From Podarcis gaigeae (Eukaryota), in the NCBI GenBank assembly GCA_964106915.2, contig OZ066919.1: a stretch of DNA of 64,000 nucleotides, one strand, 5' to 3'. A program made the translations under genes and the position numbers. Within the stretch, counting starts at the first letter, position 1; each line of letters opens with the position of its first letter. The notes beneath the pieces are model-generated. The model had not been told where the DNA came from and made no database searches. It saw only the letters and a program-made list of their open reading frames with translations. Below, in pieces: positions 2,821-9,526 of this stretch.

Positions 2821-4921
2821 AATACCTACCACTCCCTAAAGTACTTAAGTTATCTACATGTTTGCTAAAACTGTGCAGTGTCTCAGTTTTGTCTTATTTT
2901 TCTTCTTCTTCAGTTAGCTTCAGTGATACTAGAAGAGTTCTACCCTCTATCTACAATTACGGTAACTGAAAAACCCAGCTCCACATTATGACACCTAGCA
3001 AAGGATACTGTGTTAAATGCTATGCAAAAGTGTGTCACATTGTTATTCATGATTTGAAGACTTCTAAGCATAAAAATATATGAAAAGGGCAACGTTCCAA
3101 ATTTTCATACTGGTTCATTGACGATTCCCCCACCCCAGCTGAAACATATATTCTTTGAACATACAGAACCATTCTTTTGTGCCTCCATGTACAAAAAATA
3201 TATACATGTTGACTTAGAAAAAAATAACAGCCAAAAACCTCGGAAGAACTTTCTGTTTATCTTTTTGTGGTTTATGATGGCTTACAGTTGTTACTAGGAA
3301 AACAGTAACAGAAACCGGAATCTGTATCCTGCTTGCTATTGTCACATTTTGAAAGAAGGTTCATGTAAATGCATTAAGATCTTCACTAGAAAAAGGAGTT
3401 GCTGTTTAAACAGAAGTTGTCAGGAACAAGGCTTATAAAAAAGAGTTACATGTTAGCTAGCAAACCACGAAAAAACAATATTTTTTTTCACATGCCAACG
3501 CCTCTTGCTAAGTACATAATATATGGATTACTTCACTACCTGTTTAGCACATTATTTTATCTAGTGAATTGCATTTCCCTTAAAGACACTGAGGAATAAA
3601 GCTGGTTTTATTCCTCAAATGTTCTTACAGGTTTGAAATGAATTGCAGACACTATGTTTATGTTAAGTTGTTAACTATTTTGCCTTTCCAAAGAAAACCC
3701 TTCCACTTCTGTTTTTTTGTACTTCCAGGATATGTGAAAAGGGAGAAATGTGCATGCATTCTCCCCTGGGAAAAAAAACCACAAGAGAGATGCAGAAACA
3801 CAATACTGGAAGCATGAATTACTGGCACAATTATTTTTTGCTACTTCTCTGAAAGTGAGAAGCCATCTTATGCTTCCTGGTGTTTGAAACCAACATGTGC
3901 GTCAATAAACCAACACAGCCTATATCAGCCATGTTTGGTGGTTGACCAAAGACTCAATAATCTGCCTGTTTATATTGCCTGCCTGGGTCTGTAAGACCAT
4001 TGTGCCGGTGCTGCTGCTGACAAGCAGCTGGAAACCACAGCTGAAGACTGCATTTGGCTTGACATGTGCACAACGCTATCTTGGTAGCTGAAAGGAAAGG
4101 GAACAAGGCTATAACGATATCTCAGCCAATCCAATTTGAGCTGCCCAATCAGCAGCACATGGCACACTAGTCTCCCTGCCCCTGCCCCAATCAGTAAATA
4201 TCTAGCATTCCTATTGTACAGACAGTGGCAGTGCTAGTGCTACTCTACCTGTTCTCACTAACTGCAGGTCAGGGAAGGAGACTGATTACTCTCAGAAATA
4301 CTCCAGAGAGAGACTATAGCACCAGAGTCCCACTGCCTACAACATGGGTTTGCAAGCACCATGCTTAACATAGAAAACAGACTTTATTGAGAGAAAATCA
4401 GAGCCTGTTAGAATAAAACCAGTTTTTGAAATGGTACCCCTAGGCATCCCTAACAACCAGAAGGTAACAAAGAATGGAGCAATGGAGTAGGCCATATATA
4501 TCTTCACAAGCCATCCATTAGGCAGGTACAATTAGGCAGCAACTTAAAAACATGGCAACTATGATTTTAAAATCTGCACAACAATATAGAGTGGAATCTA
4601 GATGTTTCCCTTGTGATCACAGAAAAGCTTTTGATTCATGGGGCACCTCTGCTAAGTGATGATGAGAGAGACAATTATTGCAAATTCGCCCTTCCTCTGA
4701 AAGCTCCCTGCACTACCTTTCACTTTGGGCTGGAAGGTCTCTAAACTCTGAAGCCAATTTACAGGGGGCACTGTAGGGCTGCAGCTCCTCCTCCTTTCTT
4801 CCATTAATGGAGGCATCTGTTGGCTCAGAAGCCCTTCTGGGAGTGCAAGGGTACCTCGACCCTCTTTTGCATACTAAACAGCCCTATCATTTGAGACCTG
4901 AAACATTTCCATGAAAGTTTT

Positions 4922-4924
<3 letters not shown>

Positions 4925-4976
<52 letters not shown>
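4925..4976. repeat. (AT)n microsatellite, left flank of the PLE
   Basis: Direct read. Confidence 0.99.
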
Positions 4977-4978
<2 letters not shown>

Positions 4979-5060
4979 TTTCGTAGATTTTCACGGGTAC
5001 AGGAATGCAGGTTTTGGTGTCCTCGGGTGTCTTCCCGTGTAAAAGTTGGGGTGTCTAGGC

Positions 5061-5094
5061 GACGTTTCGACGAGGTCTCACTCGTCATCTTCAG
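5061..5094 (-). ncRNA. Minimal type I hammerhead ribozyme in the pLTR (same sense as FAF1 pre-mRNA)
   Basis: Minus strand CUGAAGA-U-GACGAG-UGAGAC-CUCGUC-GAAA-CGUC: CUGANGA box, 6-bp stem II, GAAA, GUC triplet. Confidence 0.8.
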
Positions 5095-5824
5095 GCTGGT
5101 GCTTTCGGCTTCTTGTTACTGGAACAGAGCGGGATCTCAATGTTTGAGTTCCTATAAATACTGTAGAGGGGGTGTGGTGTCTAGCCTCCAATGTTCTGGG
5201 CAGAGAGGAAGTTCCCAGGCTAGTGTGCCTTTTCTTCTTTTGTTCCTTAATTACTTGAGAGATACCTTGAGTGATTTCTTGAGTGATATCCTGAGTACCA
5301 CTTAGGTGGGTCATTAGGTGTGGATTAGTTGCTAAAGTCTTTGTGTCTTGACCTCTTGAACTTTGTGAAGAGTTTTCCTGAGAAGATGGCTGTATTGCAC
5401 TTAGTTGTGCTTTGGCTTGGCTTCGTGTATAGGGGCGAGCTGTGGTTTTGTGGCTTGTGTCAGCCAGATCTGTGTAGGGATTGCAGGGGGGTGCAGCATC
5501 CGGAGGTGCCACCATGGATTGGCTACTGGATGGTGTCAGTAATTCATCTGTGGAGAGGGTCTGGGTTTGGGTCTGGTGTGGTTGATTGGTGTTGGCGTTC
5601 TGTGTGCCTCTGGATCTGGTGTCAGTTTTTGTGGAGAGGGCTAATTTCCAGATGTCTGGCAAGCGGGATGTGTCGTCACGCTTGTTCATGTTGTGAGGGT
5701 GTTTCTCTATCTCGATGGCTTCCATGATTATTCTCTTGTGGTGATGTTCCCTCTACAGTATTTATAGGAACTCAAACATTGAGATCCCGCTCTGTTCCAG
5801 TAACAAGAAGCCGAAAGCACCAGC

Positions 5825-5858
5825 CTGAAGATGACGAGTGAGACCTCGTCGAAACGTC
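5825..5858 (+). ncRNA. Minimal type I hammerhead ribozyme in the inverted pLTR
   Basis: CTGAAGA 5825-5831, stem II GACGAG 5833-5838 / CTCGTC 5845-5850, GAAA 5851-5854, CGTC 5855-5858. Confidence 0.8.
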
Positions 5859-5912
5859 GCCTAGACACCCCAACTTTTACACGGGAAGACACCCGAGGAC
5901 ACCAAAACCTGC

Positions 5913-5933
5913 ATATATATATATATATATATA
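5913..5933. repeat. (AT)n microsatellite, right flank of the PLE
   Basis: Direct read. Confidence 0.99.
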
Positions 5934-7341
5934 ATCTCATGGTTACCTTCTGCTATAATGCAATGAAAATTCAATGATATTATGCAATAAATTTCATAAA
6001 TTTATGCAATCCTCATAACTAAAAATTCTATCAAGAATAGAATGGAATTAGAGTAGAGAGAGGAAATGGATATGGTAGATAGAAATGCAGATGACATACA
6101 TTCATATTTACATAAAATAATCAGTAAATCTTGTACTAATGAGAAACAAGACTTAAATGGCTGAAAAATGTATTTAGTGCATTATTGTCAATCAATGTCT
6201 CTACAACCAGGATAACAATAATCTTGAATGGCAACACACCTATTATTACAAATTCCTAACTAAGTACTTCATTACTCGCAAATGTCACTCCCAATTTACA
6301 GAGTAACAGATAAATGTCTCATTACTGTATACCTGTCTTGTGTCTACTTTTTTTTTGTAAAACTGAAACTGTGACAGTTCTGGAAAACTTTATACTTCCA
6401 CGTGCTCATTTAGTTTGAATGAAAGAGATCTGTACGGTAATGTATATTTTTATTATTATATACTGAAAGGTACCTTTGCTAGAGTACTAAGTATGATTGT
6501 TTTCCTATTTTTTTAATCATGGGGGTAAGGAATGAAAGAAGTGGTAAGTTTTTAGCAGAGTGAAGCCAAATTCCTAGTAAGAAAGAAATGATGAGAATAA
6601 TCTCCCCATATAATAAGCTGCTTTGAACATGTGAAAGGTCGATTAAAAACATGAGATGGACTTCTGCTACAACCAAAATATTTTGTTCTATAACATTTCC
6701 ATTATTTCTATTACATTACTGTGATGTTATATGTTTCAGCTACCAACTTTATTATTTACAATTTCCATCATATTTTTTAGCTAACCAGTGACACACTTTC
6801 TTTTTAAATCAACATTACGAAAACCAGTATGAACAGTAAATAACAGTTTTTAAATTTGCCGTTCAATACTTGTGGCTTTCCAGGTGCAATAATCCCCCCC
6901 CCCCCCATTCAGATGATTTCCTCAAGAGATAATTTCCCCCAGTACTCAAAGACAATATTTAGCCATTAAATTGCTTTTGCAAATGCTATGAAATTTCTAG
7001 GAGTCACAGGTGCCTATTGGACTATGATACTAGGATCCTTCCCTCTCTCCAATCCATTACATTTGTATTTTGTGCTATATCAGCACCTCTTACCGGTTCA
7101 TTGTTGTAGCATTTCAGTATCAAATGTTCATCTTTCCCTGTTCATCTTTCCCATTTAAAATAAAGCAAACACCTGTCAAAGCTCCCTTCCCTCTGTAACA
7201 TGTCGTGCCATATAATGAACCTTAGCTTTTATTTTATTTATTTAAAAGCTATATATTCATTTTTAGCACTGACGCTCACTTCTGCTCTGACTTCTTTTAG
7301 AACGCTACAGGTGATGGCTGCCCGACCCTGTCCATTACATG

Positions 7342-7479
7342 CAGGGGTGGAGAGCCTTTGGCCCTTCAAATGTTGCTGAACTGGAAATTCCATCAGCTCT
7401 ATCAAGCATGGCCAATGACCATGGATGATGGGGACTTTAGTTCAGCAACATCTGGAGGGCCAAAGCTTACCCACACCTG
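7342..7479. mobile_element. ~135-bp palindromic hAT-type MITE (family A)
   Basis: CAGGGGTGG...tggcccttcaaatgttgctgaact ... agttcagcaacatctggagggcca...CACCTG; self-complementary, with related copies elsewhere in the window. Confidence 0.85.
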
Positions 7480-7790
7480 TGTTAGCGCATCCTGGTATTA
7501 GCGTGCCTTGATGAAAAGGACAGTAGCCGTGTCCAGTTGTACAAGAGAGCTCATTAGGTGGAACTTCTCTTACTTGTGCAGTAAGAACCTACAAAAACTT
7601 CCTCTTTGCTCAACTATTAAAGCCAAAGGAACCTTGTTTTCCTTAGCATCCGGCCGTACAATGTGCAATTGGTGCTGAATTGGGGGCTGAACAGATCTAG
7701 TGCTTTGAATAGAATCCAATATTTTTTAATTGTCTGGAAAGGCCTTTACTCGAAATTCACCAGATGTCTGGAGTGATGTCCAGCTCTCAC

Positions 7791-7879
7791 CTCATCTTTT
7801 ATGTCTTCCTGCTGCTGAGCACCGAAGATCTCCATTGCAGCCATCAGCCTCATCATTAGCTCATCCACTGTTGTGTTAC
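7791..7879 (-). CDS. FAF1: FAF1 exon (~exon 15), 89 bp, phase 1-0: NTTVDELMMRLMAAMEIFGAQQQEDIKDE
   Basis: Acceptor ctttgttgctag|GT, donor GAG|gtgaga; within ORF 7746..7943. Confidence 0.98.
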
Positions 7880-8269
7880 CTAGCAACAAAGAAAGATAGC
7901 TGAACTTCATATTATGAAAGTTATTAAAAAACCAGAAAGTCATTCTAGAATTAATCCAAAAGGAATACCTAGCAGGGGTTTTTATAAGTCATAATAAGAA
8001 TATGAGATGAGATTCTTAGAATATTTTCTGTTTATCGGTGGGCTGCCCCCCACAAGTTTCTAATTTTTCCAATAAAATGTATGCACAAGCATAGACGAAA
8101 GTATTTATTCTGAACTGATTGATGATGCTTTCTGTTATATTTTCCTATAGGTGAAAATAGGATCACTAAACAGGAAGAGAGAGGGTTTTTTTTTTTATTT
8201 CTTTCAGGTAGCTGAAAGAAGCATCTTAAAAAAAATATTGTCAAACTGATATGTAAAATTTGGGCTAGC

Positions 8270-8880
8270 TTCAAAGAAGAATCTGAGGGCATTAGCTCAA
8301 AACACTTTCCACAATTGTATCCAAATTCTTCTAGACTTTTATATTGCATCTCAAATAGCAGTATATACGGTATATCCTGTTGTCCCTTGAAATCCTACCC
8401 TTCCTTTCGCATTAGTCCAAATATTGTTAAAATCCATTCTATGGTCCTGTCAGGTTTTCATTCCTGGGTGACAATAACAATTCTCTATTCTCCAATGCAA
8501 GGTGGGCTGACATGCGAGAAGATGGTAGCTTCACTTATTTCCATTATTTTCCAAGTGAGATTTTGCTTGCTCTCTACAGCAATACTCGCTGCATTTGGCA
8601 TTGTGAAATTTTGAATTTCAAATGTTGACCTTTCAGAAATCAGGATGTCTTTGACAACATACACACTAAATTTAAACTTGGAAAAGTAATGCCAAGAGTA
8701 GAGAAAGGAACTTTTTATGATAAAACATCAAACTGCCACAGCTTTGGTTAGATTTGGACCCTTGTTTTGCTTTCAAGACAGATTCCTTCAGTTATGGAAA
8801 TCTCAGCTTGAAATCAACAATATTTCAATGTTTTAAGAGTTCCAAATTAAGAATGTTGCAAGATACCTGAATTCAATGAC
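8270..8880 (-). mobile_element. Old L1-like ORF2 remnant
   Basis: Degenerate RT-region-like translation on the minus strand with frameshifts and stops. Confidence 0.35.
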
Positions 8881-9526
8881 TCAAAACATTGAGGCCCTGT
8901 TATAACATCTCTTCATCCCATTTAATTTTCACAATAATGCTATAGGGCAGGCTAAAATGGGACATGATAGCTTGCCCAAAGTCTTTAAAACTGAGACCCT
9001 ATATGTAGACTTACCTGGACAGAAATCCCATTGAAGACAAGGGAGCTTATATCTGAGTGGATATGCACAAGAATGCTCTAATCCTAAGAACACTTACTGG
9101 AGAGTACTTTTGTAGTAAAATCCTATGCATGTTTACTCAAATCAGCCTCAATGCTGGAAATCTGAAAGGGGATCTATTCTAACAACGAACCTGAATTCCT
9201 GTTTCTAAAGCTCTAGCTACAGAAAACTTATCATTCACAGTCTGTCAGTTGTTTTCATTTTTTTTGTATACTTGCTGGTAAGCATGAAAAATAAATGCCA
9301 TTTGTCACTATTTACACTATACTCCTCTTCATTATTAGAGATGCAAAGAGTAAGAAAATCAGTTTTGGCCGTAGTAAATGCAAATGAGTATAGTATAAAT
9401 GCACTGCACTTTACATTTCCCTAAAAGGTACTTTCTGAACTAAAGAAGATAAACTATATTCTAGAGAGGACCGCCAGCAAATTAACTTGGAAGGAACATA
9501 TGACCAATAGAACCAAAAAACAGTAC

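Follow-up and report, generated by a model that had tools for sequence, protein, structure and literature searches.

Opposed minimal hammerhead motifs in a FAF1 intron of Podarcis gaigeae are very probably the two ends of one young Poseidon insertion, with no activity predicted in FAF1 transcripts

Does the FAF1 pre-mRNA of the lizard Podarcis gaigeae carry a self-cleaving ribozyme? The window that we analyzed, 64,000 nucleotides of contig OZ066919.1, contains two oppositely oriented minimal hammerhead motifs. A sequence-only reading had placed them in a Penelope-like element (PLE) and had taken the host pre-mRNA to carry a potential self-cleaving motif. Penelope-like elements are the closest relatives of telomerase reverse transcriptase (RT). 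Our analysis indicates, with considerable confidence, that the motifs are the two ends of one young, 5'-truncated Poseidon insertion in the FAF1 intron. This insertion was likely made at a (TA)n tract with both cut strands acting as primers, and we predict that its motifs are silent within FAF1 RNA.

The host gene is indeed FAF1. An exon at 7791-7879 on the minus strand, with a GT donor at 7790, matches human FAF1 in the PDB (E = 7e-12). The following FAF1 exon lies outside the window, its start about 6.4 kb ahead of position 1 (acceptor at G000:C15:55483577), and a UBX exon lies further along the gene (55479423-55479599). FAF1 is on the minus strand and the host intron is about 14.2 kb long, with the insertion 1.9 kb from the donor and 11.4 kb from the acceptor. 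Because FAF1 exons flank the element on the minus strand, the element is intronic and the motif at 5094-5061 is in FAF1 sense, as the earlier reading had it. The insertion is the sole family copy across the window and the adjoining 40 kb.

The whole insertion (4978-5914) sits within a (TA)n tract, with the left flank of the tract at 4925-4977 and the right flank at 5915-5933, and consists of two arms that meet head to head. The long arm (4978-5750, minus strand) has its element sense in FAF1 sense and maps to −661 to +111, counted from the AUG of the element. The short inverted arm (5749-5914, plus strand) covers −81 to +84 and is a perfect reverse complement of 5005-5170, so that the two form an inverted repeat of 166 nt (100% identity) with both hammerhead cores inside as mirror images. 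A microhomology of 2 nt (5749-5750) joins the arms. When the arms are compared, the long arm alone has a "tail" (4978-5004, minus strand), which corresponds to +85 to +111. The long arm is 99.7% identical to a natural full unit of the family, L037 (2 differences in 771 nt). It includes the 3' end of the PLE open reading frame (ORF; 5078-5752, minus strand), which encodes residues 769-991 of a 991-amino-acid RT and GIY-YIG protein, that is, the endonuclease end and a low-complexity open extension. A putative TATA-like TATTTATA lies in the pLTR at 5759-5766 (plus strand) and in mirror image at 5160-5153 (minus strand).

The motifs themselves are where the sequence-only reading had put them, with one core at 5825-5858 on the plus strand (antisense to FAF1) and the other at 5094-5061 on the minus strand. 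The predicted cut is 3' of 5858, which is C17, on the plus strand and between 5061 and 5060 on the minus strand. The described layout of CUGAAGA, stem II, and GAAA was borne out, but a bulged U that separates CUGAAGA from stem II had been overlooked. Together with A9 and G10.1, this U makes up the AUG of the element (5831-5833 in the plus-strand core and 5088-5086 in the minus-strand core); the UGA stop of the ORF lies in loop II of the minus-strand core, at 5080-5078. Stem II (GACGAG/CUCGUC) has six Watson-Crick pairs and a 6-nt loop and forms with a probability of 0.98-1.0 when 81 nt are folded in isolation. Stem III is reduced, with ACGU directly after GAAA, and stem I is weak (in the fold, a C-G pair and a G-C pair only, then mismatches); both points agree with the earlier description.

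The motifs have CUGANGA, the extra nucleotide, a helix II with G10.1-C11.1, GAAA, a palindromic NN, and UH, and their assignment to the minimal type I hammerheads of PLEs stands. (The exception is helix I, which does not reach the usual 4-5 bp, and we file the motif as an atypical 2-bp form; compare D. virilis in PMC4209133.) Other features shared with the minimal hammerheads of metazoan PLEs, as far as the available text of PMC4209133 describes them, are the lack of a real helix III, the palindromic positions 15.2-16.2, the extra nucleotide between 9 and 10.1, and a long helix II. A minimal-hammerhead descriptor had two matches in the window, as compared to a mean of 0.017 and a maximum of 1 in 60 Markov simulations, but these are not independent matches because the two motifs are one duplicated sequence. 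The Rfam hammerhead models had no match at E ≤ 10 over 3000-9000 (there were 15 other matches), and between −80 and +111 we found neither a partner for loop II with at least 5 Watson-Crick bp nor a pseudoknot. A non-LTR retrozyme was also considered and rejected, as the arms are inverted, not head-to-tail, and carry ORF sequence.

What kind of element is this? Exact matches to the 34-nt core number 6,685 in the genome (0 for a reversed control). The full natural unit L037 is 2,965 nt long and encodes 991 amino acids, with an RVT_1 domain (E = 7e-16) followed by a C-terminal GIY-YIG domain (E = 7e-4; the score was 20.2 bits and the Pfam cut-off is 22.6). The ORF fragments in the window had no Pfam match. 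The best homologs of the protein are in Podarcis muralis (94% identity) and in Anolis carolinensis (45% identity). Because of the Anolis match, and because the layout of AUG, hammerhead, and RT start is common to PAc (Poseidon_Ac of Anolis carolinensis, PMC11167929), the family is likely to be Poseidon-like. It also has the structure of Penelope/Poseidon elements with an endonuclease (EN+), namely inverted or tandem pLTRs with an optional tail (L037 holds a partial tandem), and an AT-rich or microsatellite target. The insertion in FAF1 is an ordinary locus, a young 5'-truncated Poseidon copy.

In the portions of PMC11167929 that are available, PAc resembles the family in several respects: it has an RT with a C-terminal GIY-YIG domain, its ORF starts where hammerhead stem II does, the cut is about 25-26 nt after the start codon, an RT start is near +111, the target is AT-rich, and two RT start sites bracket the tail. 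Three differences are that the protein is only about 45% identical to Anolis P0020 (which is presumably PAc-like), that the second start is at +84 and the target is (TA)n here, and that the ORF here spans the whole unit without interruption until its stop in hammerhead loop II. In L037 (L037:1039-4014, at about 12.60 Mb of G000:C1), the 991-codon ORF exceeds the 2,965-nt unit by 11 nt: it starts at A9-U-G10.1 of the hammerhead and stops in loop II of the hammerhead of the next unit. A ribozyme-cut monomer would be without the AUG unless it were circularized, and the next methionine is residue 184. The last 200 codons contain 0 stops, versus 11 and 12 in the other frames, and have no synonymous bias. 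We saw no sign of constraint on this C-terminal extension among the 18 near-fixed differences listed (3 are at third positions, by hand count), and the C-terminal tails of the homologs vary widely. The distant homologs P0020, P0022, P0032, and P0033 begin with M, a short variable stretch, and then "ETS", which would fit if Poseidon elements generally had their start codon within the hammerhead.

Can the FAF1 pre-mRNA be cut? The sequence-only reading raised it as a potential self-cleaving substrate; cleavage might proceed as a monomer, as a dimer in trans with a family transcript, or with the aid of an element protein. Our folding models point the other way. The two arms are predicted to form a 166-bp duplex of −348 kcal/mol, and the probability of stem II was about 0 in a 1.3-kb FAF1-sense transcript, in six nascent prefixes of it, and on the opposite strand. 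Once the inverted arm was omitted, this probability rose to 0.91-0.99. Whichever the direction of transcription, the antisense arm precedes the motif. As the antisense arm is made first and the perfect duplex buries the motif, cleavage of the FAF1 pre-mRNA is unlikely. (The folds assume equilibrium, and with 728 nt between the arms, proteins or splicing might interfere.)

Cleavage as a dimer fares little better. Because the two copies in the window are on opposite strands, neither is the same-sense partner that dimer cleavage needs. Thousands of family copies could provide partners, and pairing of two same-sense motifs through ACGU/ACGU is slightly favorable (−20.3 versus −17.2 kcal/mol, a gain of about 3), but a sense/antisense duplex of the same 50 nt reaches −106 kcal/mol. 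Also, stem I has just two pairs, and minimal hammerheads were reported to have no activity as monomers and low activity as dimers (PMC4209133, in part). For PAc, RNA-seq gave no ends at the cut site, and the ribozyme required a protein for cleavage and was dispensable for insertion in vitro (all from portions of PMC11167929). The core is intact, and the contigs of four other organisms have no listed difference in 4980-5130 (they do in 5131-5191), which speaks for cleavage; however, the overlapping AUG and RT start signals also explain its invariance. Stem II itself varies little: there is one genomic variant, at 10.2, which gives a G-U pair, and none is listed in relatives. A search, with one pattern, for older families in the genome that might show covariation in stem II found none. 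Overall, we consider cleavage of nascent FAF1 pre-mRNA by the FAF1-sense motif to be very improbable. Instead, we predict that both hammerheads pair with each other and stay silent when carried in FAF1 RNA, and the hammerhead's real role would lie in the element's own cycle. (Its role in vivo is unsettled in what is available of PMC4209133 and PMC11167929.)

In a read-through transcript, the antisense arm would come first and a 166-bp hairpin would form, which would be a likely substrate for ADAR rather than an active ribozyme. RNA reads from a relative (organism A, another species; 405, 500, 320, and 271 reads per run, with all family copies pooled) have strand-specific changes. In two bulk runs, 14/38 and 34/56 of the reads in one direction carried A>G at the position equivalent to 5073, versus 0/74 and 2/71 of those in the other; T>C at 5212 was seen in 16/43 and 16/50 reads versus 0/18 and 0/36 in the opposite direction. 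A>G and T>C dominate these two runs (45 + 37 and 61 + 35 places; C>T, 12). In two single-cell runs, the excess of A>G was weaker (23 and 22 places), and position 5073 was almost unchanged. These sites are not listed as differences in the contigs of the four other organisms. The counts for single sites come from the 40 rows listed (129 more were not), and all these figures, without matched DNA, hold for the family rather than for this locus; they fit with A-to-I editing of family duplexes. Among the rows listed for these reads, no molecule ends at the cut site, but standard libraries would miss such ends, so this carries no weight.

This raises the possibility that the insertion acts on FAF1 through the duplex (by editing, nuclear retention, or small RNAs) or through two outward pLTR promoters. 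The duplex is perfect, the family has the editing signature, and both arms retain the TATA-like box. Nevertheless, the insertion is deep in the intron, is very young, and is one of thousands, and such an effect seems improbable to us. The insertion is probably of little consequence for FAF1. At the level of the family, thousands of perfect intronic hairpins would be a large potential load of ADAR substrates.

Is the pair of opposed motifs peculiar to this locus? The earlier reading had treated it as a local feature, and this was mistaken: 78 of the first 100 cores listed are in divergent pairs. Opposite-strand hammerhead pairs 100-700 bp apart were already reported, with snakes and turtles mentioned (PMC4209133, in part). 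Across the genome, 3,490 short ends (+84 from the AUG) and 2,386 long ends (+111) abut (AT)n. Within C1:1-32.8 Mb, a long end is combined with a short one in 55/62 divergent pairs with defined ends (31 expected, P = 1e-10); the remaining pairs are 4 short-short and 3 long-long, and 59 ends are unpaired in those lists. We also mapped 127 loci at base level (126 from C1 and the window, leaving out four FAF1-flank loci and loci that were selected by their junction patterns). These yielded 104 head-to-head junctions, 103 of them complete: 87 long+short, 7 long+long, 3 short+short, and 6 other. By junction type, 68 of the 104 have 1-6 nt of microhomology, 9 are blunt, and 27 have inserts. Only a single arm was present at ten end-selected loci.

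The prevalence of one long and one short end leads us to a mechanism. The endonuclease would nick both strands of the (TA)n tract; one 3' end would then prime at +84 of the element RNA and the other at +111; and the two cDNAs would be joined head to head. As both primings are downstream of the hammerhead, each arm copies the motif, while the tail is on one arm only. Each arm extends across the cut site, so the template would have been either uncut or re-ligated. In agreement with this, PAc nicks and extends both strands, and its RT begins at two internal sites (PMC11167929, in part). Against this mechanism, 10/103 junctions are long+long or short+short. Unlike here, where the genomic pairs are mostly long+short, the available account of PAc in vitro describes no difference between the strands in the RT start (PMC11167929). 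A segment before the short start, +50 to +57, can pair with the tail at +84 to +97 (6-7 bp), which makes a candidate RT-start stem-loop; in the window it would be formed by 5039-5032 and 5005-4992 on the minus strand. Separately, there are six cases of neighboring insertions, 35-57 nt apart and tail to tail (e.g., G000:C1 2384411/2384455 and 5882707/5882745), suggesting repeated insertion into one (TA)n tract.

The inner ends of the arms are also informative. They lie within 25 nt of each other in 33/87 long+short pairs (permutation mean 5.7; maximum 16 in 20,000), and the spacing in coupled pairs is usually 14-21 nt. Of the 49 pairs whose arms both extend beyond −100, 14 have inner ends no more than 25 nt apart (2.5 expected), and in 11 of these 14 the long-ended arm stops 14-21 nt short. 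Among pairs within 30 nt, the short-ended arm reaches further 5' in 25, versus 6 for the opposite (P = 0.0009). In an independent set, 8/29 arms that start at +29 are short-ended with a partner that starts at +43/44. The inner ends are more than 30 nt apart in 53/87 pairs, including the window copy, whose arms are at −661 and −81.

A rival explanation is that the inverted arm arises when one cDNA folds back and primes itself, or from an antisense template, as proposed for rotifer Penelope. Self-priming was put forward in the available part of PMC3846280, and fold-back would yield inner junctions like those seen, nearly palindromic and with 14-21 nt spacers and short microhomology. This seems unlikely, as simple fold-back predicts the opposite direction of coupling, a cDNA primed at +84 cannot yield an arm that ends at +111, and the inner ends of those 53 pairs are too far apart.

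The observed direction is predicted by two RTs in tandem on one RNA. Together with the arm starts at core position U4 (discussed below), the coupling suggests that a single uncut RNA often serves as the template for both arms. We tentatively propose, as a refinement that we hold to be somewhat short of an even chance, that each target strand engages its own RT, with the two loading on the same RNA at +84 and +111 and moving along it in tandem; that the follower halts about 14-21 nt (one footprint) short of the leader; and that the cDNA ends are then joined. A major template would begin with a discrete 5' end inside the core, at U4, which is 5 nt upstream of the AUG; it would keep the start codon, with its 5' copy of the ribozyme incomplete, and ribozyme-cut RNA would be only a minor template. 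As the window copy is uncoupled, it lies outside the support for this refinement.

The evidence for the 5' end comes from arms that start inside the hammerhead core. With matched patterns, the arms that start at U4 (equivalent to 5093 and 5826 in the window) after an A or a G number 114, as compared to 29 that start at the cut site (+29) and 8 at the control position +35. All 30 of the U4 junctions that we examined are true junctions, as are all 29 of those at the cut site. U4 accounts for 20 of the 100 junctions listed in −10 to +4, and +29 for 11 of 63 in +24 to +38, the same as +26 (both by hand count). Microhomology is present in 0/13 inverted U4 junctions; 11 U4 starts come after a same-sense piece of the element (3 of these rows are from one cluster); and 8 pairs among the 100 listed have the spacing of a blunt palindrome, with one confirmed at the sequence level. 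The peak at U4 looks like run-off and template jumping at a discrete RNA 5' end in the core; it might originate from a transcription start or a nuclease stop, or instead from an RT stall. At the cut site, the excess over the control is modest. We considered a pile-up there as a fossil of cleavage, but this was weak, and totals in 15-nt windows show none: 285 for +24 to +38 (where 38 of the 100 listed are from one satellite), 284 for +43 to +57, and 407 for −10 to +4. That satellite, a 58-bp tandem repeat that runs from +32 to about +89 of the element, is at G000:C3:88491227-88493407 and contributes 38 units among those listed.

How much of this is new? Inverted ends, a one-sided tail, a start codon inside the hammerhead, and a bias towards microsatellites are already published. 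The family resembles other EN+ PLEs in having head-to-head 5'-truncated copies, a tail at a single end, and a microsatellite target, but the tail is 27-28 nt instead of 30-40 bp; the available parts of the two sources for this (PMC8557442 and PMC3846280) describe no count of long/short pairing, no inner-end coupling, and no peak of starts in the core. Helix I is 2 bp here, as compared to the 4-5 bp reported for most such hammerheads (2 in D. virilis), and the family is nearly invariant, like an invading family in D. virilis (PMC4209133, in part). The open-access literature that we searched does not describe this lizard family, nor does it mention coupled inner ends or the U4 peak, and the accessible portions of bioRxiv 10.64898/2026.07.22.740005, PMC13725137, and PMC6515669 have nothing specific on these points. 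How tandem and inverted PLE insertions form was named as an open question in the part of PMC8557442 available. A young, high-copy family provides footprints of insertion at base resolution (paired starts, coupled stops with an offset of 14-21 nt, and a 5'-end peak in the core), and these could be tested in the existing in vitro system for PAc. If our interpretation is true, then thousands of near-identical insertions record the mechanism of Penelope.

Elsewhere in the window, at 7342-7479, 37365-37475, 48298-48408, and 54305-54408, are older short repeats with imperfect inverted arms that are 60-88% alike.
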